NCBI GenBank assembly: GCA_035275065.1
Contig: DATENM010000023.1
Location: forward strand, 71,215-135,214
DNA from: Blastocatellia bacterium
GTDB lineage: Bacteria; Acidobacteriota; Blastocatellia; UBA7656
Direction of reading: 5' to 3'
Length of the DNA: 64,000 nt
Numbering within the stretch: the first letter of the stretch is position 1; every line of letters begins with the position of its first letter. The position numbers were made by a program, and so were the translations under genes. This document shows positions 316 through 27,113 of this stretch, piece by piece. The notes under the pieces are model-generated. The model was not told the DNA's origin. It saw only the letters and a program-made list of their open reading frames with translations, and made no database searches.

Positions 316-363
316 CAATGACCGAACAGGTGAGAATGACAAAACAATTGGAGGCGTAAGCAG

Positions 364-561: not shown

Positions 562-570
562 GGACGCCAG

Positions 571-2969: not shown

Positions 2970-2979
2970 AGGGGGCGAC

Positions 2980-5717: not shown

Positions 5718-5725
5718 GACCGTTT

Positions 5726-9800: not shown

Positions 9801-9819
9801 ACTGGAAGGAGTTACGGAT

Positions 9820-11712
9820 ATGAGCACCATGACGATGGCGCCGCAAACGGGCGGCCACCGCTGCAACTGCGGATGTTCCGACTGTATGGGTGAGTGCTGC
9901 GAGTTGGAGTATCTGGTGCAGCCGCGGTTCTTTTGTGGTCAGCTGTTGACGGACCAGGATCTCAACGCCCTGCTTGAATGGGTGAAAGGCAAAACGGCGC
10001 TCGCGCGCTACCGTGACGGCTGGGGAGTGGCCTGCGGACTTGATGTGCATTGCAGCGCGGGGCCGGGCAAGGAAGGGTTCGTGTCGGTGACTCCGGGATA
10101 TGCGATAGACTGCTGTGGCAACGACATCATCGTTCGCGAAGAGGCCGAGATAGACCTGTCGAAATACTGCCTTGTCGATGAAGGCCCTTGCAGGGACCGG
10201 GCTCCGATGTCCGCGCAAAGATCGGCAGCGCAATCGGGAACAACGCCCGGCACTCCGGGGCCGAATCTTAGTTTCGGCGGATGGGAGATTCAACAAAGCG
10301 AGGTCCAGGCGGTTGACCTTTTCATCGGTTACGCTGAGACCGCAAGCGACGCGCGAAACGCCCTTGCCAAAAGAGCCTGCGACGCCGTCGAAGTATGCGA
10401 ATACACGCGGACGCACGAGGGATATCATCTCTACGCGAAGAAGGCCGAACACTGCGACCATTCCGCTGAACGACGCGCGCTCGATTGGGAAGAAGAGTAC
10501 GGAAGAAAGCTCAAAGAACTCTTCAATGATCTTCAAGCCATCTCCACCATTGGCAATGCAAAGCAGAGGGTTGAGAGGTTGAGCCAGTGGCTCACGAGCC
10601 ACGCGCTCCACAGCTTCAGCTTCATCCGAGAATGGCTGTGCGAACTTCAAAGACTGAACGAACCGACGGCCGGCTGGTTCGAGAAGATGATCTTCTGGTT
10701 GGTGCAGGACTGGCGCAGCCATTACCTCGGGTGTGAATGTTACGGCTGCGGCCCCGACACGGGCGTGCATCTGGCGAGGGTATGGCTTTGGCGGCGAAAG
10801 GACGAGCGCGGCAGGGCTTACTGCAAGGTAATATATATCAATCCCTATCCGCCGTTCCGCCGCCCGCTTCAGAGGGAATGCTGGCCCGGCAGGCCCGGTT
10901 ATTTAAACGTCGCGCGCTTCATCTGGCAGCCTACCGACTACGTCGTAGGAGAGTTGAGCAGTCTTGGCTTTGGCAGTATTTCGACGGCGCCGTTTACATA
11001 TGGAAACCTCGAAGGGTTGCGCACGAAGTTTGCCGATGATCATCTGTTCGTGCCGCGCGGGGATGGCACGAGAGCCCAAAGATTGATCATCTATTCATAC
11101 CAGGACATCTGCCAGCAGAGCCGCGTGGTGCGTTTCGGGGTCGAAACGGCGCCCATCAGAACAGATGTAAACGTGAACGCTGCATTGACCAAAGAAGATG
11201 TGAAGCCGGTGAATCAAACAACCACAGGCACAGCCGCAAGCTCAGGCTCTACACCAACCACAGCCAACGCGGAGGATGCAAAGCCGGCTACCGGGCCGGG
11301 CTTAGAGCCGCCCGCTTCACCGACTACGCCCCTTGCTGATCCGACAGCGGGACCGCCGGTAAACTCAAACGGTCCGGCCTTAATTGCAAATAACAGCCCG
11401 GCCGCTGAGATAGTCATAGCGCCGGATGTCCCAATCACGCCAGCCGTTGCAAATCCGGTTGGCAGGACGGCAATTGACCCGGACACCCTTCCGCCAACCC
11501 ACCCCCTGCTTGAGATTCAGCAAGTGAAGGGTATCGGGCCCGTTTACGCGATGCGCCTCGAAGAGGCTGGCATTATGAACCTGCGAGACCTGTCCAAGAG
11601 CAATCCGGCCACAGTGAAGCAGGCGCTGGCCGGCGGCCCGCCGAATCGCCCGGCCGAAGATATTGTCCAGGAAGCCGCAGAGCGGATCAGAAAGTTGAAG
11701 GAAGGAACTTAA
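9820..11712 (+). CDS. Paralog 2 of four: shared N-terminal domain, Cys-rich N-terminus, Pro/Thr-rich linker and a C-terminal HhH-like motif
   Basis: 630 aa, starting MSTMTMAPQ after a GGAAGGAG RBS. It has a CNCGCSDCMGECC cluster and the shared domain (PRFFCGQLLTDQDL...YRDGWGVACGLDV...VTPGYAIDCCGNDIIV). A P/T/A-rich stretch follows. Near the C-terminus is LLEIQQVKGIGPVYAMRLEEAGIMNLRDL. Confidence 0.55.
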   Translation: MSTMTMAPQTGGHRCNCGCSDCMGECCELEYLVQPRFFCGQLLTDQDLNALLEWVKGKTALARYRDGWGVACGLDVHCSAGPGKEGFVSVTPGYAIDCCGNDIIVREEAEIDLSKYCLVDEGPCRDRAPMSAQRSAAQSGTTPGTPGPNLSFGGWEIQQSEVQAVDLFIGYAETASDARNALAKRACDAVEVCEYTRTHEGYHLYAKKAEHCDHSAERRALDWEEEYGRKLKELFNDLQAISTIGNAKQRVERLSQWLTSHALHSFSFIREWLCELQRLNEPTAGWFEKMIFWLVQDWRSHYLGCECYGCGPDTGVHLARVWLWRRKDERGRAYCKVIYINPYPPFRRPLQRECWPGRPGYLNVARFIWQPTDYVVGELSSLGFGSISTAPFTYGNLEGLRTKFADDHLFVPRGDGTRAQRLIIYSYQDICQQSRVVRFGVETAPIRTDVNVNAALTKEDVKPVNQTTTGTAASSGSTPTTANAEDAKPATGPGLEPPASPTTPLADPTAGPPVNSNGPALIANNSPAAEIVIAPDVPITPAVANPVGRTAIDPDTLPPTHPLLEIQQVKGIGPVYAMRLEEAGIMNLRDLSKSNPATVKQALAGGPPNRPAEDIVQEAAERIRKLKEGT

Positions 11713-11724
11713 CCTCCGGTAATC

Positions 11725-14244
11725 GTGATGGAAAGCAAGCGCGTCTATTATGTTGAAAGACAGCGGCTCACCGCCGCGGATCTTCAGTCCGAGCAGGAAT
11801 ACCTGAACGGGTTGGACCTGCGCCACAACCTCAACCAACACATGCCGGGCATCATTCGCGGTCTCCAAATCCGACTCGCCTCTGGCCAGTTCCAGGTTGA
11901 GCCCGGCATCGCGATTGATTCGTTCGGCCACGAGCTTTTGCTTCAACAGGCAGAGCCCCTATCGCTTAATGAAGGCGCCGAGTGCGTTGATACCTGGCTC
12001 ATCTACTGCCGCGAGCAGTCGCGGCTGCGTAAGCCCGGCCGCGCCCCATGCTCAGAGAATACTTTCGAGCGGTGGCGCGAGGCCCCACGCGTACTCGTTA
12101 CACCTGCTCACAAAGACAATGATCCAGAGTTGCCGGCAGAGGGTGCGGTTTTCCTGGGCAGGATCAACTGCGGGGACCGACGAGACATCGCCTATACGGG
12201 GTTGCGCGGCATAGGAGTCGCTGACCCCGGCGTGCGCGCGCTGATGCAGGTCGGCCCGCGTACGGATCGCGACCCTTATGGCTTTGTGTTGAGAGTTGCC
12301 GATGAGTCAGGCAACCTCGCTAAAAGAATCGCGATGGACCGGCGCGGCAATAATTACTTGTTCGGCATGGTGCAGTTACTCGATTGCCAACGGACGCTCG
12401 TTGTGCCATTGCTTCAGAATACGCTGCGCATGATGGTCAAGGCCAGTAAGCCTGGAGAATCTGGAAAGCAGATTCAGGTAATGATAAGGGAGACACAACA
12501 AGGGAATGAGATTAATCTGACATTGATTGACGAAAGCGGTACTCCGCAGCCCGAAGTGCTAACTGTCACGGCCGGCAGACCGCCCAAAGACATAGTAGAG
12601 GAGTTAAACAAGAAATCGGCACTGGCGACGTTCATCCTTGTCAACAAAGATACTGAACCCGGTGATGAGAATGTCCAGTTGCTGAGTGTGCAAGACGATG
12701 TCCACGCCATTCTGACCAGCGCCAGGGCAATGTTAGAGCTCGCCGACTGGTCGAAAGAGGCTCCGGCAGAAATCATACGGCGCGGGTGCTATGATCCATT
12801 GCCCAACGAGAGCTTAACTGATGGGGACGAGCCGAATGGTCTATCTTTTCGTCCTGTATCGAAGCCACCCAAAGGCACACCGCGGCCGAGAATCTACAGC
12901 GTAACAGTGCAATCCGGCGACCGCACTATAGAACGGCTGCGCCTTGATCTTGGCGAAAAGAAGGAAAACGATACCACCGTGCGGCTGTCGATAGGCGCGC
13001 CACCTCAGGACGATACGCCCTCCGGCATGTGGCTGTCGGTCAGCGGCAATTGCCTGGTTTCTCTCAACCCCAAGAAGGACCCAAAGGACGAGGACGAAGA
13101 AACCCTTCCCGCTAGAATCGAGGTAACTGGCTCGATTGAGCAGTCGCCTATAAAGCCCGACCCCACGAATCCACTCTTTCGAGATCTGCTCGTCGCCGCA
13201 TGGTTAGCCGGATTGCGTAGCTCGATTCAGGCTTCGACGACTATTAACGTTACCTTCGAGCAAGTCCCCCAGTTGATCGAAACCAAAAAGCCATGGGGCT
13301 ACACCGTGCGCCTGACCAACAACGAGAAAAAAGAGATCACCGCTGACAAGCTGCTTGAGACCATACCCGTTTCTAAGAAAGCGCCGATACGAAGCCTGGG
13401 GACGCAAGTCTCAATCCCTCCCAGCAGCAGCACCACCATCTCTGTGAGTCACGAGAAGGATGAAATCCCGGCGGGATTTATGGACATCGAAATCATGGCC
13501 AGCGGAAAGATCGGAAACTTCCCCTGGTGGAAATCCAACGAGAAGAAACATATCCCCGTCCTGGAAACGCCGGTGATCGATACCTCGGATGTCCCCGATT
13601 CGGTGCCGCCTTCGGCAACCTGGAGCCATGAATTCACTATCAGGAACACTGCTACGCTGCCCCTGACATTGAAGGAAGTGATCGTTACCGAAGATGCGAC
13701 CGTCCGCAATCTGTTGCCTATGCCGACCGAGATATTACCTGGGGGTGAGAGAGTTGTCGGGCCGGTCCCGCATCCAATCGAGGTAACGTCAGACCTGAGA
13801 ATCGCCTTATCCATGAAATACCAGTGGCAGAACGGCCCGGAAGATACGCTCTCGCTGGATGAGCCGAAAATAGTAAAAGTAGAACAACAACTCCAGTTTG
13901 TTGAGTTCGAGACCCCGGGCGAAATCGAAGTAGAAAGGGACTGGGCGTATGGGTTAAAGCTGAAGAACAAGAGTGCGATGCCGTTGACCGAAATCTCGCT
14001 CAAGCACAGGCTCATAAGCGAAAACCTTCCCGTAATGCCGTTTGTAGCCATACCCGATGTGCCGACAACTCTGGACCCGAACGAGTCCACGCTTTCGTTA
14101 CATATTGCCGGCGTCAAAGCTCCGGTTTCGACCCAGGACACGACAGTCCGGGTGGAGATCGAGGCGCAATACGAACGGGGCGGAAGGGCCTGGCTTTTGA
14201 AGCCGGTTTTCTCAGATGAGATCGAAGTCACCGATGGAAGTTAA
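11725..14244 (+). CDS. Paralog 3 of four: shared N-terminal domain with a long beta-rich C-terminal region
   Basis: 839 aa. Shared domain: RQRLTAADLQSEQEYLNGL..HN.......RGLQI....FQVEPGIAIDSFGHELLL. The remainder is unique. Confidence 0.55.
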   Translation: MMESKRVYYVERQRLTAADLQSEQEYLNGLDLRHNLNQHMPGIIRGLQIRLASGQFQVEPGIAIDSFGHELLLQQAEPLSLNEGAECVDTWLIYCREQSRLRKPGRAPCSENTFERWREAPRVLVTPAHKDNDPELPAEGAVFLGRINCGDRRDIAYTGLRGIGVADPGVRALMQVGPRTDRDPYGFVLRVADESGNLAKRIAMDRRGNNYLFGMVQLLDCQRTLVVPLLQNTLRMMVKASKPGESGKQIQVMIRETQQGNEINLTLIDESGTPQPEVLTVTAGRPPKDIVEELNKKSALATFILVNKDTEPGDENVQLLSVQDDVHAILTSARAMLELADWSKEAPAEIIRRGCYDPLPNESLTDGDEPNGLSFRPVSKPPKGTPRPRIYSVTVQSGDRTIERLRLDLGEKKENDTTVRLSIGAPPQDDTPSGMWLSVSGNCLVSLNPKKDPKDEDEETLPARIEVTGSIEQSPIKPDPTNPLFRDLLVAAWLAGLRSSIQASTTINVTFEQVPQLIETKKPWGYTVRLTNNEKKEITADKLLETIPVSKKAPIRSLGTQVSIPPSSSTTISVSHEKDEIPAGFMDIEIMASGKIGNFPWWKSNEKKHIPVLETPVIDTSDVPDSVPPSATWSHEFTIRNTATLPLTLKEVIVTEDATVRNLLPMPTEILPGGERVVGPVPHPIEVTSDLRIALSMKYQWQNGPEDTLSLDEPKIVKVEQQLQFVEFETPGEIEVERDWAYGLKLKNKSAMPLTEISLKHRLISENLPVMPFVAIPDVPTTLDPNESTLSLHIAGVKAPVSTQDTTVRVEIEAQYERGGRAWLLKPVFSDEIEVTDGS

Positions 14245-14271
14245 CCCGAGTCGGAAGGAGGTCCGAAATTT

Positions 14272-15525
14272 ATGACGACCGTGATTGTCCCGCGAGTGCA
14301 TTTTTTTGACAAACAGTTTTTGCGGGTGGACGAATTCAGAGATGAGCAGTTATACCAGCTTGCTGCCAGGCGTCGTCATAACGTAGCCCATCATTCCTGG
14401 GGCATCGTTCTGGGCCTGGAGATCGCGCAGGAAGATGGGGCGGTGATCGTTCGCCCCGGCATGGCTATTGATGGCTACGGGCGCGAGCTGGTGCTGCCCG
14501 ACAAGGAGTACCTTGCGGAGGGAGCTTTTGATGATCTAGGCGCAGACCGGCTCGATGTCTGGCTCGTCTATTCCCGCCGCGATGGGGAGGCTGCGCCCGA
14601 AGGATATGGTGGCTGCGGACCTGCGGGTGCGCGCGACGCTTATCGATCAGATGAGGTTCCACGGGTCATTGTCGAGAGGCCCGTTTCAAATACTGTTGAT
14701 GCGCGGCGTCCGCCGGGCGTGCAGGAGAGTGTGCTGAGCTCGAAAGTGCCCCTGATCTCTGACGATGATAATGACAGGTGGAGGGTCTATCTCGGCCGTA
14801 TCATTCGCCTTCCCGACGGCACGATTATGATCGATTCCGCGCAGCGGTCTTATGTCGGACTGGTAGGCGAGGTGATAGATCATCCGGCCAATGGTGCGCG
14901 CCTGGAGATCGGCAAACAATCGAGCAACAACGACAAGCGCAATATAGGTGAGGTTACATACGAATATGAGAAAGGCGAAGACGCTCAGCGGAAACAGTCG
15001 CGGCGCTTCGCTATATTCGTCCCTGAAGCTGACGTGTCGGGGTCGGCTGAACAGCAAGTGAAAATATCGCCTCGCTTCGACATTCTCCAAAGCGGAGTAA
15101 TGCGTATCCGCGGCAGAACTATAATCAACGGCAACCTACAGATCACCGATGGGGCCGTTCAGTTTAACGAGCCGGCCAGCTTTAGCCCGGAGAACGCCCC
15201 GCAGAAGCCTTCAATTTACCGGATAACATCCACAGCCGGCGGGGGCGACCAGTTACGAATAGACCTCGGCTCAGAAAACACTATCGACCGTGAGTTCGTC
15301 ATCGGGTTTTCTAATGAGGAAGGTGAGTTTGTCACTTGCCTCAAGCTAGAGCTGAAGGACAATGATCCAAATAAACTGACGCCACTCGTCACGATTAACG
15401 GAGACCTCATGTTGAATGGCGAGGTGGTAGGAGGCAATTTAGTTCCGCGCGCCTTGAGTCAGGAAGCCTTCAACGCCATCCTGGCAAGCTTCCAGGCGGG
15501 GGTCGCCGCCAGCAATAACGTATAG
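14272..15525 (+). CDS. Paralog 4 of four: shared N-terminal domain
   Basis: 417 aa. Shared domain: KQFLRVDEFRDEQLYQL...HNVAHHSWGIVLGLEI...VIVRPGMAIDGYGRELVL. The C-terminus is unique. Confidence 0.55.
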   Translation: MTTVIVPRVHFFDKQFLRVDEFRDEQLYQLAARRRHNVAHHSWGIVLGLEIAQEDGAVIVRPGMAIDGYGRELVLPDKEYLAEGAFDDLGADRLDVWLVYSRRDGEAAPEGYGGCGPAGARDAYRSDEVPRVIVERPVSNTVDARRPPGVQESVLSSKVPLISDDDNDRWRVYLGRIIRLPDGTIMIDSAQRSYVGLVGEVIDHPANGARLEIGKQSSNNDKRNIGEVTYEYEKGEDAQRKQSRRFAIFVPEADVSGSAEQQVKISPRFDILQSGVMRIRGRTIINGNLQITDGAVQFNEPASFSPENAPQKPSIYRITSTAGGGDQLRIDLGSENTIDREFVIGFSNEEGEFVTCLKLELKDNDPNKLTPLVTINGDLMLNGEVVGGNLVPRALSQEAFNAILASFQAGVAASNNV

Positions 15526-15545: not shown

Positions 15546-17564
15546 ATGGAACCGCGCATTGGACATTGGCACTGCCGCTACAGGCTAATAGGCGCGCGCC
15601 AGGAGGCTGCGCTTGCGGTCGAACGCCTTGAGCGAACGGTGCGGCCGCGCGTGTCCGCGGCTTATGCCGACGCCCTCGCCCACGCCTTCGAAAACGATCC
15701 GGCGGTCTATTGTCTGCGCCGCCTCAACGTGCGGCTTGTGCTCGACGGCGCAATGGCCGAAACCGAGGCGAACCTCGCACGTAGATGGGCCGACCGCTTA
15801 GGGTCTGCCGTGGTAACGAGCATTGCGCGTGACGGCGACCATAGCGACAACCTCGTTCGGTTCATGGATGAGCCTGATTATGTGGCGCACTTCCTCCTCG
15901 ACCTGTTGAATGATATGGCATGGCAGCGCTGGTATTACGGCGCGTTTTCAAAGCTCCGTGGTCGTCCGAAAAAAGAGGCAGTGCTGTTCTTATTGATGGA
16001 GCACCGAGAGCATCTTTCGGCAATCCTCCGGCGATTGGCGATCCTCGGCTGCCTCAGCCGAGTCCTCGCGCTGATTGACGAACCTGCCGCGCGCGCTCTT
16101 TGGTCCGAAGCTGGGGAGACTCGCGCCGAGCTCCACAACGCAGATGGGCATCGCATTTTCGTTCGCAGCGCGATTCACATACTCCGCCTGCTCGGCGTTT
16201 GGCCCACCTCAGCGCCTTCTGAGTCAGCCGTTCTTGAAGAGTACCTGAAGAACCGTCCATTGATGCCGGACTGGACGGACCGTCGCTCGCTTGCGGCAGC
16301 AGTGCTTAACGTAATACGCCACGCAACTGACCGCGCATACGTGTCGGGCTTGAACTCCGAAACCGCCGAGAAGCTCCCGGAAATCGGCGAACAAATCTCG
16401 TCGGAATTCGACTGGCTCGATGTTGAATGGCTGTGCAACGCGCTGTTTGCGATTCTGGCTAAAACCTTGCCCGAACTACGGCAGTCCACTTTGCCATCTC
16501 GCAATCCGGCAGCCACCCCCCTGCACCGCCAGATTGTCGAGCGCATCCGCGACCTGTTGCGGGCGGGCAAAGTCAGGCTCAATCTAAATGAGGCGGACAC
16601 GGCACTGAACGCTATCAGGCTCTATGCAGCGCTGGCGGCTGCCGACCCTGAGCTTGCAAGCCGGGCCGCCGCGCGAGCCGTTATCGATCACCTGTTGATA
16701 TGCGCCAGGTCGTTTGCGGAAGCTTCCGGCCCCCACACAATCCTGGCTGCGATGCGAATGGGCGGCGGCGCGCCCTCGTTCGCAATACTCCCTCGCCGCG
16801 CACAAGACGCACTTAACACGGCTGCAAGTTATGGCCCCGCCGCTGTAGAAGCTCTGGAAGAGATCATCGCGTCAAGAGTGGCTGGAGGCACAGAGGCTTT
16901 CACAAAGCGGTTTCAAACCGAGTGTGCGGGACTTTTTTTGGCGGCGCGAGCGATCATTGATGCGCGCATTACGCAGGTGGCCACGGCTTGCGGGGCGGGG
17001 CCGGTCTCATCTGTTTTGCTTGCCATCGGTATCGTATGGATGGGACCGCGCGCGCTTCGCGATACGATTACTGACGAGGGCCTCGCCTTCTGGTGCGGCC
17101 TTGCTCCTGAGGAGCATTGCGCCACAGAGATGCTCGCAGCCCTTGACGTTGAGGGTTGCCACCGACTTCTTGTGAAGGTGCGTGAGCTGTTTGAAGACCG
17201 CGCCGCGCTCTACTCGTCTCTTAAAGAGATTGCTGCGCCAGAATCCTGTCTGGCCGATTTGATCGCAGACCTGCCTCCCGGCGTGATCGTCAACGAATCG
17301 CTCGCGCTCACAGCGATCTACGCGATCAGACTTTGGGCGCAGTGGCTGCCCGGCCTGTCCGGTTCGAGCCCGCTTTACCTGCTGCGTAATATGTTGCGGC
17401 GAGCGGGCGCGCTGCAAATCAGCGATCATTGCGTAGATGTCCGTCTTCAGCCCGGCCCGTTCGACGTTGTGCTTGAGATGGCCTCCTACACGAAGGAACT
17501 CTCCGGGGTCACGTGGCTCGGAGGCCGGAAGGTTATCTTCCACATCGAGCGGAGCTCCGAATGA
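15546..17564 (+). CDS. Ala/Leu-rich helical protein in the Afp14 position; candidate tail-length (tape-measure-like) protein
   Basis: 672 aa with a predominantly helical composition, directly upstream of the AAA+ ATPase and overlapping its start. The assignment is by position and composition only. Confidence 0.35.
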   Translation: MEPRIGHWHCRYRLIGARQEAALAVERLERTVRPRVSAAYADALAHAFENDPAVYCLRRLNVRLVLDGAMAETEANLARRWADRLGSAVVTSIARDGDHSDNLVRFMDEPDYVAHFLLDLLNDMAWQRWYYGAFSKLRGRPKKEAVLFLLMEHREHLSAILRRLAILGCLSRVLALIDEPAARALWSEAGETRAELHNADGHRIFVRSAIHILRLLGVWPTSAPSESAVLEEYLKNRPLMPDWTDRRSLAAAVLNVIRHATDRAYVSGLNSETAEKLPEIGEQISSEFDWLDVEWLCNALFAILAKTLPELRQSTLPSRNPAATPLHRQIVERIRDLLRAGKVRLNLNEADTALNAIRLYAALAAADPELASRAAARAVIDHLLICARSFAEASGPHTILAAMRMGGGAPSFAILPRRAQDALNTAASYGPAAVEALEEIIASRVAGGTEAFTKRFQTECAGLFLAARAIIDARITQVATACGAGPVSSVLLAIGIVWMGPRALRDTITDEGLAFWCGLAPEEHCATEMLAALDVEGCHRLLVKVRELFEDRAALYSSLKEIAAPESCLADLIADLPPGVIVNESLALTAIYAIRLWAQWLPGLSGSSPLYLLRNMLRRAGALQISDHCVDVRLQPGPFDVVLEMASYTKELSGVTWLGGRKVIFHIERSSE

Positions 17565-19822
17565 AGTCCCACATGCCTCCAGAAGTCCTGCTGAATCGCG
17601 GCCCATACAGGCGCAGCGCGGAACACTTGCGCGACGAACTTGCACGCGTAGACCTGCTTGTGCGCGCGCAGGTAGTGCGCTGGCGTTTGACCATCGGACA
17701 GACAAAGGCGGAAGAGATGTGGGGCATGGTTTATGTGACCGACGCCGAGATTGACCGGTATATGAGTTCTCCTATCGCGCCGCCCGACCGACTGCCCGAA
17801 TCGTTGCTGCACGCCCTCAAGCCGTTCTGGGAGGCTGAAGCTTTAGCAGGCCGACAAATCCGCGAGAACGTGCAGGCCACGGCTTCTGAAGTCGATCTGA
17901 GGGTGAATTCACTCTCCACAGCATTTCAGCTAACCGACCTTGAGCGAGACCTCGTGCTGGTTTGTTTGCTGGCCGAACTCGACTTCCGCTACCGCCGCAT
18001 GCTCGGTTATCTCCAAGATGATGTTTCCCACAAAAAGCCGCCAGTTGAGCTGCTGCTCCAGATAATGCGCCCGCGGGCCGAATCGCTTGAAGAGGCCCGT
18101 GCGGCATTTGAGCCCGAAGGCACGCTTCTGTCAAAACGGCTTCTTGTCTTGAGCGGCGAAGATGACAATCGCGCAACGCGGTCTGTTCGGCTGGATGAAA
18201 GAATCGCGTCATACCTTCTCGGCTCGGACGGCCTGGACGCTCGCCTATCGAATGTCGTGGTGAGAAGCGCGGAGGCGGTGAAATGGGATGAGCTACTGTT
18301 TGATGATGCGCTCATCGCCCACCTGCGCCACCTGGCGGATTACGTGAGTCTCGGCAAAGCCATCCTGTTTTTTCACGGCCTTCGCGGCAGCGGTCGAGAA
18401 AAGGCTGCGCACGCCATCTGCACTCAAAACGGTATGCAGCTTCTGCGCGTGGACGTGGCGGCGGCCCTTCAGGAACAGACGCGATGGGAGGTTATCGTCG
18501 ATCTCGCGTTTCGAGAAGCGCGGCTCGCCGGGGCCGCCATTTACTGGGCAGATGTCGATCTTCTGCCGCAGGATGAGCAGGCGTCATATCGCGTGGATTA
18601 CCTGCGGCGCGCCGCCGGCAACTTTCAGGGGCTAACGATTCTGTCCGCAACTGTGGCGGGAGAAAGTTACGCGCAGTTTCGCACCTGCCTGCCTCTGCAT
18701 GTCGATTTCCCTGTCCCTCACTTCGAACGCCGCCGCAAGATATGGTTGGCCTATCTGCCGCCCGAAGATGAGCTGCCGAACAGAAATGAAATCGCGGAAA
18801 CGCTTGCCGGGGCGTTTCAGCTCAACGAAGGGCAGGTACGCGATTCGGTCGTCTCTGCGCGAGAGCTTGCGCGGCGGCGCGATGTCTTCAATCCGAAGGT
18901 TACGAGCGAAGACCTCTACGACGCCTGCCGTAAACAGGCCGGTCGTCGCTTGCTCGGATTCGCGCGGCGGATCGAGCCCTCGCGCAAGCTCTCGCTCGAC
19001 GACGTGATCCTGGCCGAGACTAATAAACGGCAGCTTAAGGAGCTATTGAACCGCATACGTCTGCGCAGCCGCCTCTATTCCGAGATGAAATTCGGGCGAA
19101 GCCTCGCCGAGCGCAAGGGCCTGCTGGTTTTGTTCGCCGGCTCGTCCGGCACCGGCAAGACCATGTCGGCCGAGCTGCTTGCCAGCGAAGAGGGGGTTGA
19201 CCTGTATAAGGTTGACCTTTCCGCCATCGTGAGCAAGTGGGTGGGAGAGACTGAAAAGAACCTCAACCGAGTATTTGCGGAAGCTGAGGACTCAAACGCG
19301 CTGCTGTTCTTTGACGAATGCGACGCCCTGTTCGGGCAGCGCGGCGAGATCAGAGAGGCGAAAGACCGGTGGGCCAACCTCGAAGTGAATTACCTTTTAC
19401 AGCGCGTGGAGGAGTATTCAGGGGTAGTCATTATGGCTACGAATCTGAGGCAGAATATCGATGATGCTTTCCTGCGTCGCATTCAAGTCATCATAGAGTT
19501 CCCTTCTCCGGACTCGGAATTACGCTTAAAGATATGGGAGCGGAGTCTCCCGCCGCCGCCACATTCAGACATCAGTGAAGACGATTTGCGAAACGTGGCT
19601 AACCGGTTTGCAATCACTGGTGGCAACATACGCAACATCGTGATCGATGCAGCCTTCCGCGCGCTGGCAGACCACCGTGCGGGGATTACTCTCCGCGACC
19701 TTGTGGATTCAATCGCGCGGGAATACCAGAAGATCGGCAAGCCTATCACTCAGGGAGATTTCGGCAAAGAGTTCTTCGGATGGGTTGTCGCTGATATCCT
19801 CTCTCCTCCCGCTGAAGGGTGA
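17561..19822 (+). CDS. AAA+ ATPase (Afp15 / CDC48-like eCIS assembly ATPase)
   Basis: Walker A is GSSGTGKT and Walker B is LLFFDECD, with a long N-terminal domain. The start MKSHMPPE overlaps the upstream stop. The ORF track offers an alternative start at 17513. Confidence 0.8.
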   Translation: MKSHMPPEVLLNRGPYRRSAEHLRDELARVDLLVRAQVVRWRLTIGQTKAEEMWGMVYVTDAEIDRYMSSPIAPPDRLPESLLHALKPFWEAEALAGRQIRENVQATASEVDLRVNSLSTAFQLTDLERDLVLVCLLAELDFRYRRMLGYLQDDVSHKKPPVELLLQIMRPRAESLEEARAAFEPEGTLLSKRLLVLSGEDDNRATRSVRLDERIASYLLGSDGLDARLSNVVVRSAEAVKWDELLFDDALIAHLRHLADYVSLGKAILFFHGLRGSGREKAAHAICTQNGMQLLRVDVAAALQEQTRWEVIVDLAFREARLAGAAIYWADVDLLPQDEQASYRVDYLRRAAGNFQGLTILSATVAGESYAQFRTCLPLHVDFPVPHFERRRKIWLAYLPPEDELPNRNEIAETLAGAFQLNEGQVRDSVVSARELARRRDVFNPKVTSEDLYDACRKQAGRRLLGFARRIEPSRKLSLDDVILAETNKRQLKELLNRIRLRSRLYSEMKFGRSLAERKGLLVLFAGSSGTGKTMSAELLASEEGVDLYKVDLSAIVSKWVGETEKNLNRVFAEAEDSNALLFFDECDALFGQRGEIREAKDRWANLEVNYLLQRVEEYSGVVIMATNLRQNIDDAFLRRIQVIIEFPSPDSELRLKIWERSLPPPPHSDISEDDLRNVANRFAITGGNIRNIVIDAAFRALADHRAGITLRDLVDSIAREYQKIGKPITQGDFGKEFFGWVVADILSPPAEG

Positions 19823-19823
19823 T

Positions 19824-22800
19824 ATGAGTGCCACTAAGGACCTGTCTTTAGACGTCACCCCGCAGCGCGACCGCCGCCCGCGCGAAGCATCCACCGGTAT
19901 GGATTCAAGCATTGGCGCTGGTCAGTCATTATTCGCTCCTGCGGCAGAGCGCGAAGGTGTCCTGCCTCCGTCTAACGGTGTTCCGTCGGCAGCCCGCGCT
20001 GCCAACCTCATGACCGCTGCGGAAACGTTGCCCGATGTCGCTGCTCGCGCACAGATGAGCATCGCTCTCCAACGCAATGTCGGCAACGCACGCATGGGGG
20101 CCATGTTCGGAGCGATGGCCGGACCTAAGGCTTCTCCGCCTGCACCGCCGCCAATTGCTTCGCCTGCGCAGGAGTCGAATCGCCCATCGCCCATACCTTC
20201 AGCAGTACCGGCACAGCCGGTCAGTCCCGCTGTGCCCCCGACCCAAGTGGAACCTGCCAGGCCCACAGCTCTGCCACCAGCAAAGACCGCGCCTGTGCCG
20301 ACTCTGCTCGCGCCGATCTCACCCGCGCCTACATCGCCCGCCGAGGCTCAGACGGTTCCATTCGCAGCGACACCGGCCAAATCGCAAGAGCCGCCCGTGT
20401 CGGCCAAAAAGGCCGCGACTGGAACTGCCGCGACTGAAAAGGCACCCGAGCCTGGCTCAGAAGAATCAGCCAAATCTGTTGAGGCCGCGCAGCCGGCGAA
20501 GAAAGGCTCGACCGCGCGCGGCGCCAAGCCTGGGGAAAAGGCCGAAGCGGGCAAAGCGCAGACGGCTTCCCCCGAAGGCGCGGCAGAAGAAGGCGGATCG
20601 GGCGCAGGGCGCGGCAAAGGCGGACGTTCGGTTCAGCTTAAGATGCCTGAGCCGCCTTCGGACCTGACGCCAGCCGCTCGCCAGCGTGTTCAAAAAGTGA
20701 AGGCATCGGCTGGCCAGGCGGCAGCCTCGCACGCGGCGTTGCCGTCGGCCCCGGAATCGGTGAAGCAGGCGCGCACCGCCGTGACCGAGCCGCAGCAGGA
20801 AGCCAACGCCCACGCGGGCGCAGACCTGGTTGACGCACTAGGACAACGGCCAAAACCGAGCCCGCAGATCGAGGCAATCTGCGCAGAGATCCGACTGGTG
20901 ATCGAGGAGAAGCGCCCACCTGACGAAAAATCGCTGGTCAAGGCTGACCCGGAACAGATGGGACAGGAGGCTGGCGATAAGGTGAAGGGCAATGTGCAGG
21001 GGGACGTGAAGCGCGTCGATCAGAGCTACGACTCGCTTGAGAAGACGCCCACAGGTACGCCGCAGCAGGGCCAGCCGCTTGAAGCTCTGCCCGCCAGTGC
21101 GCCTGTTCCAGCTATGAATGCGTCCCATGCAGCGCCCGACTCAGTGCCAGCGCAGAACGTCTCGCTTAATCAAGACTCCGAAGATGCCAAAGCGCGCATG
21201 GGCGAGGCAGGCATGAACAAAGCGCCTGCCAAACTGGTCCAGACCGGTCCCGTTGCCGAAGCCCGCGCCGCGCAGGGCGAGCTTGAGAAAACCGCCGCCG
21301 AGGACCCGGCCAAGGTGCTGGCCGCGCAGCAGGCATCATTGAGCAAGGCCAGCGCTGATATGGCGGCATTGCAACAACAGGCGCTCAACGCGCTCGCCAC
21401 CTCGCGCAGCAAGACAGTCTCCGGCACGACCGGCCAGCAGAAGCAGATGGTTGGGTCTGAAGAGCAGAAACGTACACAGGTGAGCGCGCAGGCACAGGCT
21501 ATCTTTACGGGTGCTCAAACTCGCGTCAACGGCCTGCTCCAGACGCTCCCGCAAACCGCCATGCAGAAGTGGGACGCGGGGATCACCATCGCCAAACGTC
21601 AGTTCAAACAAGAACTGAAGACGGTCGAGGAGTGGATCGAAAAGCGCCATGAGAGTATCTTAGTCAGTTTTGCGGACCGGCTCTTTGGTCTGCCTCCGTG
21701 GGTCACCGCCAAATACAACATCGCCGAGAAAAACTTCGGCAACGACGTGTGCAACCTTGCGCGCGAGATTTCTATTGAAGTCAACGGCATCATCATGACG
21801 TGCGAGGCGATTATCGCCGATGCACGGACAAAGATCGCAAATCTCTTTGCTTCGCTGCCCGAAAGCCTGCAAGCGTGGGCCGCTGGCGAGCAAGCAAAGC
21901 TTGGCGCGCAGCTCGATACGCTGCAAAATCACGCGCACGAAGTCCGCGACAACTTTGACCGCGAACTCGTAGGCCGCGCCGCGCAGAGCGTGCAGGAAGT
22001 CCGCGAGGAAATCCACGCGCTGCGTGAGAAGGCGAAGGGGTTCCTCGGCAGGCTCGCCGACGCGATTGATCGTTTCGCCCAAGACCCCGCGAAGTTCATC
22101 CTCGAAGGGTTGCTCGACCTGCTCGGCATCCCGCCCGCCTCGTTCTGGGCGGTGGTGGCGAAGATACAGAAGGTCATCGGCGACATAGCGGACGATCCTG
22201 AGAAGTTCGCCAACAATCTCATGGCCGCCGTCGGCAAGGGGTTCACACAGTTCTTCGACAACATCCTTGACCACCTGCTGCACGGCTTCCTCGATTGGCT
22301 GACGGGCGGGCTGGCGGCGGCCGGCGTCACGCTCCCGAAGGACCTGTCGCTCAAGAGCATCATCACATTCGTCCTGGAGTTGATGGGCATTACGTGGCCG
22401 CGCATTCGAAAACTTCTTGCGAAACACATTGGCGAAGAGAACGTCGCGCTGCTTGAAAAGGCCTATTCCATCGTCGCCAACCTGGTCGCGCTGGGGCCTG
22501 AGGGCATCTTCGAGATGATCAAGGAGAAGTTGAACCCGCAGGAGATTCTCGATCAGATCATCAAGGCGGCAGTAGATTACATGATGAGCGCCATCATCAA
22601 GGCCGTGAGCGCGCGCATCCTCCTGCTGTTCAACCCGGTGGGCGCAATCCTTCAGGCGATTGAGGCAATCTACAAAGTTCTCAAGTGGATCTTCACAAAC
22701 GCGGCGCGCATATTCCGATTGATCGAAACCATCGTGAACGGGATCGCGGACATCATCGCGGGCAACATCGGCGGCATGGCCAACGCTGTCGAGAAAGCAC

Positions 22801-24131
22801 TCGCCGGTCTCATCGCGCCGGTGATAGATTTCCTCGCAGACTACCTCGGCTTCGGCGACCTCCCGAATAAGGTGAAGGAGACTATCCTCGGCTTCCAGGC
22901 GTGGATCGAAGGAATACTCGACCAGGTGATCGGCTGGCTTGTAGAGAAGGGCAAAGCTCTGCTTAAGGCCGTCGGGCTGGGTGGCAAGGAGGGCGAGAAA
23001 AAGCCGGACGAAGGAGAAGTCGGTGAGTCGGTCGCATTTACCGCCGGCGGTGAGCAGCACCGGCTCTGGATTGCGGTTAAGGGCGGCAACGCCGTCATCA
23101 TGCTCGCCAGCGGAGCAGCCGCTCTACTTGACTTCTTGAATAGCGAGCGCGTACAGAAGGCCGTCGATAGTGACGACCAGAAGCCTGCGGATAAAAAGAT
23201 CAAAGACAAGGTGCCACGCGCCAGGGAGCTAGCCAACGAGGCCGATGTTGATGCGGAAAAAGTACTGAGTTTCATGTCGGGGCAAAAAGAGGACGAGGCC
23301 ACGCAAGAGAACAAGAAGGTCAAAACCGTGGAACACCAACTGGCGAACCTATTGACCGACATCCTGGGCGCGATCTCGAAGGACGGACTCACTATTTTTG
23401 ATGTTATAGGGAAGCCGATTGACCCGCTGCCCGAACAGCCGAAGCCAGAAGGATATGTATTTGTAATAAGCCATGGGTTTAAAGAATTGCAGCGAGCGGC
23501 GGGTAGGGGTAAGGAAGGTCCAGAACAATACCCTCAGGTCCACGTCGATGAGGTGGGGATAGTAAAGTCAGGTGCGGGAATACTTCGCTATGATTACGAC
23601 CTCGTCAAGAGGTATAATGCTGCGCTTACGAGGGCGAAGCTGGATGGGGACGAAGCGCCGGGCAATCCAGAAATGCCAGTAAACATGCTTGTGAGCGGCG
23701 CTAATAAACCACCGCATTTTAATGAAGGCATCCGTGCTCAGATGGAGCAACTCATTAGGGAGGTCGACGGCGGACAGAATGTTACCGGTGTAGAAGTAAT
23801 GCTTGGCCGCAAGCGAATCGATTACACGATAACAGTTGATAGGGGTGAAGGGGTAGAGAACGCGCTGGTCGAGTATAAACACTGGACCGGTAATTTGAAG
23901 GATGAGCGGCGCGCAGAGTTAGCCGCAAAACTCTTGACGCAATTGACAGCCTATGTCGATCACGCGCGGACCGGGGGTAATGATTATCGACGTCTGATTA
24001 TCGCGTGGCCGGCATTCTCCAGGTTGGACGCTACCAGCCAAGCCGCGTTCAACAATGTGTTTGAAGCTGTAAAGAAGCATAGCGACAGCAAGCCCGCGAA
24101 CGAAAAGGTCACGATTGAGATTAAGAATTGA
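19824..24131 (+). CDS. Large candidate eCIS cargo protein or effector
   Basis: 1435 aa from MSATKDL, with a GAAGGG RBS. It has IALQRNVGNARM near residue 80 and a ~250-aa P/A-rich segment. The C-terminus has ...TVDRGEGVENALVEYKHW (a D-x13-EYK arrangement). The last ~0.7 kb has visibly lower GC. Confidence 0.45.
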   Translation: MSATKDLSLDVTPQRDRRPREASTGMDSSIGAGQSLFAPAAEREGVLPPSNGVPSAARAANLMTAAETLPDVAARAQMSIALQRNVGNARMGAMFGAMAGPKASPPAPPPIASPAQESNRPSPIPSAVPAQPVSPAVPPTQVEPARPTALPPAKTAPVPTLLAPISPAPTSPAEAQTVPFAATPAKSQEPPVSAKKAATGTAATEKAPEPGSEESAKSVEAAQPAKKGSTARGAKPGEKAEAGKAQTASPEGAAEEGGSGAGRGKGGRSVQLKMPEPPSDLTPAARQRVQKVKASAGQAAASHAALPSAPESVKQARTAVTEPQQEANAHAGADLVDALGQRPKPSPQIEAICAEIRLVIEEKRPPDEKSLVKADPEQMGQEAGDKVKGNVQGDVKRVDQSYDSLEKTPTGTPQQGQPLEALPASAPVPAMNASHAAPDSVPAQNVSLNQDSEDAKARMGEAGMNKAPAKLVQTGPVAEARAAQGELEKTAAEDPAKVLAAQQASLSKASADMAALQQQALNALATSRSKTVSGTTGQQKQMVGSEEQKRTQVSAQAQAIFTGAQTRVNGLLQTLPQTAMQKWDAGITIAKRQFKQELKTVEEWIEKRHESILVSFADRLFGLPPWVTAKYNIAEKNFGNDVCNLAREISIEVNGIIMTCEAIIADARTKIANLFASLPESLQAWAAGEQAKLGAQLDTLQNHAHEVRDNFDRELVGRAAQSVQEVREEIHALREKAKGFLGRLADAIDRFAQDPAKFILEGLLDLLGIPPASFWAVVAKIQKVIGDIADDPEKFANNLMAAVGKGFTQFFDNILDHLLHGFLDWLTGGLAAAGVTLPKDLSLKSIITFVLELMGITWPRIRKLLAKHIGEENVALLEKAYSIVANLVALGPEGIFEMIKEKLNPQEILDQIIKAAVDYMMSAIIKAVSARILLLFNPVGAILQAIEAIYKVLKWIFTNAARIFRLIETIVNGIADIIAGNIGGMANAVEKALAGLIAPVIDFLADYLGFGDLPNKVKETILGFQAWIEGILDQVIGWLVEKGKALLKAVGLGGKEGEKKPDEGEVGESVAFTAGGEQHRLWIAVKGGNAVIMLASGAAALLDFLNSERVQKAVDSDDQKPADKKIKDKVPRARELANEADVDAEKVLSFMSGQKEDEATQENKKVKTVEHQLANLLTDILGAISKDGLTIFDVIGKPIDPLPEQPKPEGYVFVISHGFKELQRAAGRGKEGPEQYPQVHVDEVGIVKSGAGILRYDYDLVKRYNAALTRAKLDGDEAPGNPEMPVNMLVSGANKPPHFNEGIRAQMEQLIREVDGGQNVTGVEVMLGRKRIDYTITVDRGEGVENALVEYKHWTGNLKDERRAELAAKLLTQLTAYVDHARTGGNDYRRLIIAWPAFSRLDATSQAAFNNVFEAVKKHSDSKPANEKVTIEIKN

Positions 24132-24140
24132 GTCTGCGAA

Positions 24141-24869
24141 ATGATAGACATGTTAGAGATAGATACACTGATTGGAGGGTCGCTTTATTTTCAGCAACCA
24201 CTTTCATCCAAGGATGGTCTCCGCCTGATTAAGCTCGCAATCGAAGGGCTAGGCCCGTACATGGGTGTGCCATTTAAGGCATACCTTGACCACCAGTCTG
24301 ACATACTTACCAAACAGGACGCAGCCGCATTTGAAGCGAGCGGACAGGCAATTATCTTCAACCATGAGCCACTGGCTCGCGAAATGAATAGATCGACCTT
24401 CTTCCTGACCCACTCTTACCTTGGCACGCATCCGGACGTGAAACAGATTCGCGTATACCCGTCTGTGATTGCCAGTGGGCCGGAACTAGATCGGGTTTGG
24501 GATTTCATGACAGATGTGATGCCACGATTCGTCGAAGCTACTCAACCCGGTCTCGCCATGGCTACAGGCTCGCCCGAAGAGGATGATTATACTGAATACC
24601 TTCCGAACGCTGCGGAGATACATCCGGGAGAACTGCCGCCTTTTTTTACCCCCTGGAACTACATAGGCCCCGATTGCCTGACGCAAGAGCGGCGGCGCTT
24701 TCTCGACCGGCTCCCCGCAACGCGGTCTGAGCCGTTCGGCGAGGGGTGGCTACTACAGGTGGTCAGGAGCCTTTCGCAATGGCCGAGCCCTGAGTTTCTA
24801 GAAAGATTGCGTTCGGCTCCCAACCCACAACCGGTCGGCTACCGCCAGCCCAGAATAGATGAGCAATGA
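24141..24869 (+). CDS. Hypothetical protein downstream of the candidate effector (possible immunity, chaperone or cap protein)
   Basis: 242-aa ORF with lower GC than the structural genes and no recognisable domain. Confidence 0.4.
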   Translation: MIDMLEIDTLIGGSLYFQQPLSSKDGLRLIKLAIEGLGPYMGVPFKAYLDHQSDILTKQDAAAFEASGQAIIFNHEPLAREMNRSTFFLTHSYLGTHPDVKQIRVYPSVIASGPELDRVWDFMTDVMPRFVEATQPGLAMATGSPEEDDYTEYLPNAAEIHPGELPPFFTPWNYIGPDCLTQERRRFLDRLPATRSEPFGEGWLLQVVRSLSQWPSPEFLERLRSAPNPQPVGYRQPRIDEQ

Positions 24870-25201
24870 CGTTGGCGAATTTCAGTCTTTGGACAGACAC
24901 CGCCCGCACGCGGTTCTTCCTTATCCCTGACGACAAGCAATTTCCACTCGGTGACTTCGTGCTGCGCACGCTCACGGGCCGGGAGATGGAGGTTGACCCA
25001 ACCGCTCTGGCTGAGTACGAAATAAGCGAGCAGGAAGCAAAGGGATGGCTCAAGGGCGAATTCGGCAAGATGCTTGACGGCGCGCGGGCAGTAGCAGATC
25101 GGTTCATCGAGAAACTGAGACAGGGGCCGCCAGGGCCGGCCGAAGATAAGAAAACAGAAGATAAGAAAATGACAGACACGAAAGAATCAGGCGACTCGTG
25201 A
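24866..25201 (+). CDS. Small hypothetical protein with an acidic, Lys/Glu-rich C-terminal tail
   Basis: 111-aa ORF that overlaps the previous stop. There is no domain call. Confidence 0.35.
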   Translation: MTLANFSLWTDTARTRFFLIPDDKQFPLGDFVLRTLTGREMEVDPTALAEYEISEQEAKGWLKGEFGKMLDGARAVADRFIEKLRQGPPGPAEDKKTEDKKMTDTKESGDS

Positions 25202-25239
25202 CCTGGCAGCCTGCCATCAGCGTGCGCGACTTCGAGTCG

Positions 25240-26571
25240 TTAGGGCAGGTCGGTGCTGCGCAGAATCTTGTAACGATTCATCTTTCTATAAAGAGTCATC
25301 CTTGACCAGTGGAGCTTGTCGGCAGCGCGCGTCTTGTTCCAGTTCGTTGCGACAAGCGCCTGGATCATAAGCTCTCGCTCGTTGGGGTTGGCAGAGGTTA
25401 TCTCTGATATGTGTTTCTTGACCTGCTCCGGAAGATCGACGATATCTATTATCCTGCCCTGAAGATTGACGAAGATTGCTTCGACCACGTTCTTAAGCTC
25501 CCGGACATTCCCCGGCCAGCTATGCGACATAAGTAAATTCATGGCTTCGCCGGTAAATCCTTCAACGTGCATGCTAAACGATTGGTTCATTGCCTTGACG
25601 TAATAGGTAAGCAGCTTTGGGATGTCTTCGGTGCGATCTTTCAGCGATGGCAGTTGCATGCGAATCACATTCAGGCGGTAGTAGAGGTCCTGGCGGAAGC
25701 GTTTCTGCTCGACCGCTGCATCGAGATCCTGATTAGTGGCCGCAAGGATTCGCACACTCAAAGGCAAGGGCTTGTTGCTTCCCAATCTGTAAATCTCCTT
25801 GCCGTCTAAGGCGCGCAGCAGCTTGGCCTGGACTGAGGAACTGATGTCTCCGATCTCGTCGAAAAAGATCGTCCCCGTATTGGCGAGCGCCAGCTTGCCT
25901 TGGTAAGCGTATTGCGCTCCGGTAAAAGCTCCCTTCTCATGCCCGAAGAGCTCGCTTTCGAGCAACGAATCGGGAATGGCTGCACTGTTCAAGCAGACAA
26001 AAGGCTTGTTGGAGCGGGGGCTGTTTGCGTGAATCAACTCGGCTACGAGCTCTTTGCCCGTGCCCGTTTCGCCCGTAATCAAGACATTGCTTGTCCACTT
26101 GCGCAATTTGTTAATGAGAGCCCGCAAGTCACAAACCGCCGGGCTATTACCGATCAGCCGCTCGCCCCATCGTAATGCGCAACTCTGCTCAATTTTGGCG
26201 ATGGGTTCTCTATCGCCGGAAAGTAACTCCGCGAGGATCGTTATGATCTGTTGATCGGAAAGTGGAGGTTTAAGATAACGATTTACTCCGGCGTTCAGGG
26301 CCTCAATCGCCATCTCCTCGGAACTCTCGGCCACGGCCAATACGATAGGGACTTCCATTTTCAACGCACGGACCTGGCGGACGAATTCGAGCGCTGGCTT
26401 GGCCTTGCCCGGCGGCACGCTGATAATAGCCACGTCGGGTATCAAGGAAGAGAGGAGCTTCAACGCGTCGGCGCAATCCGAGGAATGCAATACCTGAAAG
26501 CCTTGCCGTGAAATCAGGCTTGCTATGACCGGGCGTGCAGATTCAATGACCATGATTTTGGAATCAGTCAT
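25240..26571 (-). CDS. Sigma-54-dependent transcriptional regulator (NtrC family enhancer-binding protein) with an atypical receiver domain
   Basis: Walker A is GETGTGKE and the GAFTGA motif is present, with a C-terminal HTH. The N-terminal receiver-like domain has Ser where the phospho-accepting Asp is expected (PDVAIISVPPG). Confidence 0.85.
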   Translation of the reverse strand: MTDSKIMVIESARPVIASLISRQGFQVLHSSDCADALKLLSSLIPDVAIISVPPGKAKPALEFVRQVRALKMEVPIVLAVAESSEEMAIEALNAGVNRYLKPPLSDQQIITILAELLSGDREPIAKIEQSCALRWGERLIGNSPAVCDLRALINKLRKWTSNVLITGETGTGKELVAELIHANSPRSNKPFVCLNSAAIPDSLLESELFGHEKGAFTGAQYAYQGKLALANTGTIFFDEIGDISSSVQAKLLRALDGKEIYRLGSNKPLPLSVRILAATNQDLDAAVEQKRFRQDLYYRLNVIRMQLPSLKDRTEDIPKLLTYYVKAMNQSFSMHVEGFTGEAMNLLMSHSWPGNVRELKNVVEAIFVNLQGRIIDIVDLPEQVKKHISEITSANPNERELMIQALVATNWNKTRAADKLHWSRMTLYRKMNRYKILRSTDLP

Positions 26572-26589
26572 GACAGGCTTCTCCTCTCC

Positions 26590-27113
26590 ATGGCCGAAGA
26601 CCTCCGCCGCAGAGGCGAGTTGGACTTACCCGAATGCTTGATTGACGGCGCCTTCATGGTCGCCAAAAAAGGGGCGGCAAAGTCGGAAAGACCAGGCGGG
26701 GCAAGGGGACTACGCGAGTGGCAGACTCTGCCGGTCTCGCTGTCGCCGCCTACACTCAATCTGCTAGCCCGTATGGGGTCACCCTTGTGACCAAAACTCT
26801 CGTTGAACGCTTTATCGCTGAGCAGCCTGAAGGATGGATCGGCGATAAAGCCTGCGACTCTGACCCGCTGGATGCGGAGCTTGAGGCGCTCGACATTGAA
26901 ATGATCGCGCCGCACAAGAGCAACCGCCAGAAGGCGAAGACGCAAGACGGGCGGAGGTTGCGGCGCTACGGGCGGCGCGGGAAAGCCGAGCGGCTGTTTG
27001 CGTGGTTGCAAAACCACCGGCGGGGATTGGGGCGTTATGCGTATCATGATGCGAACCACTTGGGCTTCGCCCATCTCGGCTGCGTCCTGATCTTACTCAG
27101 GGCTTATTTTTGA
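26590..27113 (+). mobile_element. Degraded IS5-family (IS427-group, DDE_Tnp_1) transposase remnant; frameshifted and N-terminally truncated
   Basis: Two frames carry transposase-like segments: ...DGAFMVAKKGAAK... and ...VERFIAEQPEGWIGDKACDSD...IAPHKSNRQ...GKAERLFAWLQNHRR...HLGFAHLGCVLILLRAY. There is no intact ORF. It is followed by a lower-GC tract at 27114-27470. Confidence 0.6.

Follow-up and report, generated by a model that had tools for sequence, protein, structure and literature searches.

The toxins associated with extracellular contractile injection systems (eCIS) have been described as combining a DUF4157 domain, a very long linker and a C-terminal toxin (Geller et al. 2021, PMC8213781), and polymorphic toxins of the Photorhabdus virulence cassette (PVC) type that carry DUF4157 (PVC-metallopeptidase) have been catalogued as well (Zhang et al. 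2012, PMC3482391). In AlgoCIS, the cargo proteins Cgo1 and Cgo2 share an N-terminal loading sequence (PMC8894135). The targets of environmental eCIS particles are mostly unknown, and surveys found no immunity genes beside most eCIS toxins. Here we describe a locus of this known kind, with a toxin family and a partner family that are undescribed, in a 64,000-nt stretch (hereafter the window; contig DATENM010000023.1, positions 71,215 to 135,214) of a Blastocatellia (Acidobacteriota) metagenome-assembled genome. The segment from about 22,990 to about 24,886, which holds the 3′ part of a large cargo gene and the gene after it (ORF242; ORF, open reading frame), is in our judgment probably a polymorphic toxin-immunity cassette that occupies the 3′ end of an eCIS cargo operon, and its DNA has been exchanged independently of both flanks.

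The cargo gene lies at the 3′ end of the eCIS operon straight after the gene for an Afp15-like AAA+ ATPase, the position expected of an eCIS-associated toxin. It further resembles PVC and eCIS toxins in its long conserved region and in the variable C-termini of its homologues, nucleases among them, and differs from them in that the window protein lacks DUF4157 and that its C-terminal domain (C-dom) and next gene fall in no described family. Whereas the surveys stress that immunity genes are frequently missing, a co-varying downstream gene accompanies the cargo gene here and at almost every sister locus. The parallel with Cgo1 and Cgo2 of AlgoCIS would comprise a large cargo, a disordered N-terminal loading sequence, a variable C-terminus and the Afp15-like ATPase, and by the same analogy the cargo is probably carried in the lumen of the particle's tube; however, only one cargo gene, lacking DUF4157, is present in the window, and no immunity partner has been described for Cgo1 or Cgo2. 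From the CdiA-CT/CdiI and Rhs/type VI secretion system (T6SS) cassettes, including the PD-(D/E)xK CdiA-CT toxins (PDB 4g6u, 4zqu), the locus is set apart by delivery through a phage-tail-like particle, by the lack of a VENN, PT-HINT or Rhs motif, and by the lack of significant sequence similarity.

The cassette stands out in composition. In 300-nt intervals the raw G+C content dipped to 0.47–0.53 between 23.2 and 24.5 kb (window mean, 0.59), and a two-segment likelihood fit to the G+C content of third codon positions (GC3) along the effector ORF put the break at codon 1246 (nt 23385), GC3 being 0.71 ahead of it and 0.54 beyond it (log-likelihood ratio, 13.6). The 16 lowest of the 1541 sliding 100-codon GC3 intervals in the whole 64 kb all fell inside 23337–24351, and the two lowest of 41 gene segments were the C-terminal 249 codons of the cargo gene (GC3 0.545) and ORF242 (0.564). 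We scored codon usage as the mean log relative synonymous codon usage (RSCU), conditioned on the amino acid, against 258 background intervals. Both 23382–24131 (–0.071, z = –3.2) and 24141–24869 (–0.041, z = –2.7) scored below every one of these, making the cassette an outlier of about three standard deviations from the window background; since the score is conditioned on the amino acid, the shift lies in codon choice and not in protein composition. A first-pass annotation, made from the sequence alone, had reported a drop in GC from about 23.4 kb and proposed checking it by sliding-window GC and codon usage. The drop proved real and significant as far as 24.87 kb, but it does not run on through the ORF at 24866–25201 (ORF111) as had been claimed, this gene being in the normal range for both GC3 (0.64) and mean log RSCU (0.065). 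Nor are the upstream eCIS genes uniformly GC-rich, as had also been stated, for the fibre paralogues at 11725–15525 have a GC of only 0.55–0.56 and a GC3 of 0.62–0.65.

Replacement of the segment was evident from comparison with related loci. Scanning a genome collection with the conserved core of the cargo protein returned 17 loci (L007–L023; L numbers denote related loci throughout) from Acidobacteriota, Eremiobacterota, delta-, alpha- and gamma-proteobacteria, Bacteroidota, Actinomycetota and Gemmatimonadota. Among cultured bacteria, this type of locus is carried for example by Lysobacter dokdonensis DS-58, Nocardioides pini and Neolewinella lacunae. The closest relatives of the window by ATPase, core, ORF111 and a sigma-54 activator gene beyond it are L007 and L008 (identities to L007 of 76%, 85%, 66% and 74%, respectively). 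By blastn the window is collinear with L007 at 72–76% DNA identity over 17001–22984 and again over 24890–26591, and between 22984 and 24890 nothing aligns; the same breaks in collinearity, at 22990 and 24886, appear with L008. At the protein level (effector residues are counted from nt 19647, where the ORF begins), 50-residue bins show 64–94% identity to L007 and L008 up to residue ~1125 and only 10–38% thereafter, while the more distant L001, L009 and L010 hold 40–66% past that point. In the first part of the replaced segment (22985..23381, + strand), which opens with a Gly/Glu/Lys-rich hinge (GLGGKEGEKK) and continues into a semi-conserved pre-toxin subdomain (VAFTAGGEQHRLWI...), L001, L009 and L010 stand at 58–66%, and L007 and L008 drop from 74–94% to 38% and then to noise.

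The window is thus nearer to L001, L009 and L010 in the cassette but nearer to L007 and L008 in both flanks, a discordance that variation in evolutionary rate cannot explain. Judged by these alignments, a 1.9-kb segment has been replaced that takes in the hinge, the pre-toxin subdomain, the C-terminal domain and ORF242, with breakpoints at about 22,990 and 24,886. The idea that the low-GC stretch is a horizontally exchanged module attached to a conserved delivery region is therefore upheld by phylogenetic discordance together with a clean 1.9-kb gap in DNA similarity. The left edge first drawn at about 23.4 kb is right for the GC drop but not for the exchanged unit, which starts ~400 nt upstream: GC3 in 22985..23381 is 0.69, still of ordinary composition, so that only the distal 1.5 kb of the replaced segment is compositionally deviant and the boundary had been set ~400 nt late. 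The exchange junctions, hinge residues ~1110–1125 on the left and the start of ORF111 on the right, mark natural sites of cargo swapping that may be useful for engineering eCIS payloads.

The C-termini of the wider family are likewise polymorphic, as the comparison with orthologous loci suggested in the first-pass annotation was meant to reveal. An exhaustive HMMER search with effector residues 326–1494 gave 4735 representative clusters, 2770 of them at E <= 1e-30. Among the top 150 representatives, alignments end at query positions 771–937 (ORF residue ~1096–1262), and only for one (P0008) does the alignment continue across the C-terminal domain; clustering by BLAST sorted the tails from 142 representatives into 49 groups. 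All-against-all BLAST of tails, next genes and third genes grouped the 18 loci compared into at least 10 tail families. Tail family A consists of the window, L001, L009, L010, L019, L015 and L023, plus L006, and a homologue of ORF242 follows each of these tails; family B (L012, L022) has its own next gene, as does family C (L013, L018, L021; the gene call in L021 is unclear). Seven further tails are singletons, six with an unrelated, unique next gene, the seventh (L020) with none callable. A conserved N-terminal region is thus joined to unrelated C-terminal domains, nearly all of them followed by a gene that co-varies with the domain. Nuclease toxin domains were recognized in the tails of some family members, namely Ntox15 (44 bits against a cut-off of 22.5), AHH and Endonuclea_NS_2 (NucA-type). 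In L016 (Neolewinella lacunae) the Ntox15 tail is followed by a gene with a weak, below-threshold match to Tdi1_C, a pairing that on sequence grounds indicates that the slot holds toxin-immunity pairs; the likeness to the T6SS DNase-immunity pair Tde1 (Ntox15)/Tdi1 concerns this sister locus and not the window cassette. The next genes of L013 and L007 have weak matches to SUFU and Imm11, respectively.

The variable domain of the window itself, C-dom (23382..24131, + strand; 249 aa), is a putative PD-(D/E)xK nuclease. Ten homologues at 32–60% identity keep V53-x-V55-D56, G66, D71, G116, R118, Q120, M121, G136 and D147-Y148 (numbered within the domain). Moreover E138, D147, E164-x-K166 and Q187, the last often within a QxxxY motif, are invariant in 10 sequences, and E122 is present in nine of the 10, so that the order and spacing of the (E)...D...(D/E)xK catalytic motif are preserved; the candidate catalytic codons are D at 23820–23822, E at 23871–23873 and K at 23877–23879. 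An AlphaFold2 (AF2) model of the domain was poor, with a predicted local distance difference test score (pLDDT) of 49 overall from a shallow multiple sequence alignment, and 56–90 over residues 150–249. Its elements run α(111–129), β(133–141), β(146–153), β(158–165), α(174–194), β(204–208), with D147 where the second strand begins and E164-x-K166 where its hairpin partner ends, a placement that, as modelled, would correspond to the canonical PD-(D/E)xK geometry. The pattern of E, D, ExK and Q(xxxY), on what is modelled as an α-β-β-β-α-β core, is also that listed for Tox-REase-1 and Tox-REase-6 (Zhang et al. 2012), although C-dom, unlike the Tox-REase and PDDEXK_1 families, has an extra N-terminal half of ~100 aa with an invariant VxVD...G...D. 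In residues 1–110 (23382–23700) we noted this separate pattern as V-x-V-D (D in nine of 10 sequences), G66 and D71, in a region that AF2 predicts to be unstructured (pLDDT < 45).

Comparison with known structures gave little. Foldseek against the PDB returned nothing at E <= 0.001 for the C-dom model, and the weak structure matches were mixed (CdiA-CT, FokI, N.BspD6I, EcoT38I, MspJI, BamHI and Cap4); single members had sub-threshold Pfam matches to PDDEXK_1 (E 0.025), Tox-REase-9 (E 0.08) and SfsA. On the conserved residues, we lean somewhat towards C-dom being a PD-(D/E)xK nuclease that lies outside every curated family. It might instead be a variable non-enzymatic domain, serving for example in target binding or regulation, with a co-evolving partner. 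We think this improbable, given that invariant charged residues persist in canonical order and spacing across sequences of only 32–60% identity, that bona fide nuclease toxin domains occupy the same position in homologues, and that the gene sits at the end of an eCIS cargo operon.

The second gene of the cassette, ORF242 (24141..24869, + strand), starts 9 nt past the effector stop, and its product is identical to NCBI protein VJ464_04385. Its homologues were found only downstream of family-A tails (L001, L006, L009, L010, L015, L019 and L023), and a database of 5.8 billion clusters contains just three members of the family. ORF242 had no sequence match in Pfam, NCBIfam, PHROG or the PDB, and no signal peptide or membrane segment was recognizable by eye. 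Its strict co-variation with the C-terminal domain makes a cognate immunity protein the best reading, and a protective function is likely. The main rival accepts the exchange of the cassette but takes ORF242 as a toxin-specific chaperone or adaptor that maintains C-dom in an unfolded or soluble state so that the ATPase can load it into the tube. Co-variation demonstrates a specific partnership and not protection, the AAA ATPase is believed to load eCIS cargo in an unfolded state (bioRxiv 10.64898/2026.05.27.728243), and a partner matching no Imm family beside a toxin of a class often reported without immunity genes would suit this role. A generic need for loading, however, would not call for a new partner with each toxin; the genes in the same slot of sister loci weakly match Tdi1_C (beside the Ntox15 tail), SUFU and Imm11; and the conserved ORF111 is the better candidate for a general chaperone. 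We therefore hold the chaperone role to be unlikely, though it deserves more weight than any other alternative.

Several observations count against the toxin-immunity cassette reading. Many PVC and eCIS toxins have been reported without immunity genes (PMC3482391, PMC8213781); ORF242 matches none of the known immunity families (the Imm families, SUKH, SUFU, Tdi1), and its AF2 model was unusable (pLDDT 45, shallow alignment); C-dom has no significant sequence or structure match to any nuclease family in Pfam, NCBIfam, PHROG, the PDB or Foldseek. The closest cassette relatives are only 54–60% identical in the tail and 41–50% in the next gene; no donor was identified, and on an absolute scale the transfer is not a recent one. 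Lastly, at every one of the 18 loci GC3 is 0.07 to 0.27 lower in the cassette than in the core; the dip is to that extent generic to the locus type, and part of the contrast comes from an unusually GC3-rich, strongly constrained core and not from foreign origin alone. The core of the window cargo has a GC3 of 0.82 as compared with a window average of 0.70, both of which would accord with an account without any transfer, in which relaxed codon selection or local mutational bias lowered GC3 in a fast-evolving 3′ region and the tails diverged in place. Such an account is very hard to sustain, because rate variation cannot yield a cassette nearer to L001, L009 and L010 between two flanks nearer to L007 and L008, because the L007 and L008 tails are not alignable with the window tail at all, and because the tails of the family include unrelated folds, such as the HNH-type Ntox15 and AHH. 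The GC3 contrast has, rather, two sources: repeated exchange of cassettes not adapted to the host, and the constrained GC3-rich core.

Under the toxin-immunity reading, the cargo would consist of a disordered N-terminal loading region, a conserved helical delivery region of ~790 aa and a replaceable C-terminal module made up of the hinge, the pre-toxin subdomain and the 249-aa toxin domain. This module and ORF242 were replaced together in this Blastocatellia lineage, the likely route being recombination between the conserved sequences on either side, the delivery region to the left and ORF111 to the right, and the incoming DNA brought the lower GC3 and foreign codon usage that the first-pass annotation picked up. 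After injection the toxin domain would most likely act as a metal-dependent PD-(D/E)xK nuclease, and ORF242 would most likely bind and neutralize it in the cytoplasm of the producer. C-dom, ORF242 and ORF111 are unannotated families open to direct characterization. Within this cargo family a co-varying gene almost always occupies the position behind the toxin, a testable indication that bacteria are the targets of these particles, or at least of their toxins.

ORF111 (24866..25201, + strand) is a conserved small accessory gene that lies outside the cassette. It overlaps ORF242 by ATGA, as does the corresponding pair in L007, and DNA similarity to L007 and L008 resumes at 24886–24890, which places it beyond the replaced segment. 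Homologues occupy the same position in 14 loci whatever the tail family, beside at least six unrelated tails, and follow the core phylogeny (66% identity to L007, 51–53% to L001 and L009); most are 170–190 aa long with a helical C-terminal extension, short forms being those of the window, L001, L007 and L008. ORF111 had no significant sequence match in Pfam, NCBIfam, PHROG or the PDB. Of the two small ORFs put forward as immunity or chaperone candidates, then, only ORF242 remains a candidate for the immunity role: a gene conserved beside unrelated tails that tracks the core cannot be a cognate immunity protein, and with its ordinary composition ORF111 drops out of the proposed low-GC module altogether. 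A structural component such as the Afp16 cap, the finding that was to speak against a cassette, was not encountered either; neither small ORF matched Afp16/Pvc16 (DUF4255/Pvc16_N) in Pfam or NCBIfam even at E <= 10 or E <= 1, nor any other structural family. Having rejected ORF111 as immunity protein (it is conserved independently of toxin family) and as cap (it has no DUF4255 match), we infer from its conservation that it is a general accessory of this cargo type, possibly a chaperone or loading factor.

Convergent with these genes, a sigma-54-dependent response regulator is encoded at 25240..26571 on the – strand (Pfam Response_reg, Sigma54_activat and HTH_8). Orthologues adjoin the ORF111 homologue in L006–L009, L013–L015 and L021, at least eight loci in different phyla, at identities of 44–74% (30% in L006, whose contig is frameshifted). 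This eCIS type may thus have a regulator dedicated to it; the regulators to which Geller et al. draw attention are instead of the GerE type (PMC8213781). Matches to the sigma-54 promoter consensus were not enriched in the window (four against 5.1 expected). More broadly, we raise as a tentative generalization, for which we would give somewhat less than even odds, that this widespread cargo family (> 4,700 clusters in Acidobacteriota, Proteobacteria, Bacteroidota, Actinomycetota and others) systematically carries a cognate immunity gene for each toxin, a universal small accessory of the ORF111 type and, at most of the loci examined, an adjacent sigma-54 regulator. Were it true, this eCIS lineage would be mainly an antibacterial, nuclease-delivering weapon, which would bear on the reported lack of immunity genes for most eCIS toxins, and C-dom and ORF242 would found a new toxin family with a restriction endonuclease (REase) fold and a new immunity family, respectively.

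The cargo gene (19824..24131, + strand; 1435 aa) most likely starts at the ATG at 19824, which lies 1 nt past the ATPase stop and behind GAAGGG; the mechanically called ORF is longer (19647–24131, 1494 aa). A Pro/Ala-rich, low-complexity N-terminal region with a conserved LQRNVGNARMG motif (19824..20621, + strand) is partially conserved in L007–L010 and would be the loading signal. It is followed by the helical delivery region of ~790 aa (20622..22984, + strand), which corresponds to the 'very long linker' of DUF4157-type eCIS toxins and is conserved at 45–85% identity across the 17 loci, from at least seven phyla; at the DNA level it is collinear with L007 and L008 at 74% identity until nt 22984/22990. 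A 330-aa core of this linker is 54–85% identical in 16 of the 17 loci and 45% in L023, and linker GC3 is unusually high across loci (0.72–0.99). No Pfam or NCBIfam family covers the large cargo protein, the helical linker included. An eCIS_core/DUF4157 domain was found at the N-terminus of 15 of the 34 family members scanned and known nuclease toxin domains in some tails, linking the family to the architecture of eCIS-associated toxins. By its sequence the large protein has the layout of DUF4157, very long linker and C-terminal toxin, the window copy lacking DUF4157: neither the 1494-aa ORF nor any of 19 window ORFs scanned from 571 to 28387 gave a Pfam match to DUF4157/eCIS_core.

In L001 a separate 506-aa DUF4157 protein is encoded by the gene adjoining and preceding the effector orthologue. 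The two L001 cargo genes (4406–5926 for the 506-aa protein and 5964–9995 for the 1343-aa orthologue) have their first 54 aa in common at 56% identity (E 6e-13), in the manner of the Cgo1/Cgo2 pair. L006 (ENA ERZ25039545 contig_154870) at first sight offered a standalone toxin-immunity pair away from any eCIS cargo, which we rejected on finding that the same conserved region, interrupted by frameshifts, is encoded just ahead of P0001. Over its positions 1–3250 the effector orthologue is split among several frames and gene callers give only the 230-aa P0001, a fragment easily mistaken for a standalone toxin; P0001–P0003 are fragments of full-length orthologues. These frame breaks are probably indel errors of the assembly, although a pseudogene is possible.

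The distal part of the eCIS operon occupies the + strand from 571 to ~25,200 and encodes a tube/LysM protein, spike, PAAR, gp25, baseplate J, a P2_I-like protein, CIS13 fibres and the AAA ATPase; beyond ~27 kb the genes are ordinary chromosomal ones. The ATPase directly upstream of the cargo gene (17513..19822, + strand) is an Afp15/Pvc15/Alg15-like cargo-loading AAA+ ATPase with an N-terminal winged-helix domain (Pfam WHD 1.6e-39, AAA 1.2e-27). Around the cassette, a promoter and terminator scan gave counts equal to the shuffled expectation. A 168-aa ORF at 26568–27074 (– strand) shares 4 nt with the start of the sigma-54 activator gene, has no family match, and has no homologue in any related locus. 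Immediately 5′ of the ATPase, a 672-aa ORF at 15546–17564 (+ strand), which has no Pfam, NCBIfam or PHROG match, may judging by its position be the tape-measure (Afp14-like) protein. Four consecutive CIS13-like fibre paralogues (8379–9800, 9670–11712, 11725–14244 and 14272–15525) each open with a CIS13-family N-terminal segment (E 1e-22 to 0.01) and diverge after it; the GC3 of these genes (0.62–0.67) is the lowest among structural genes, and from their sequences they look like an array of alternative tail fibres.

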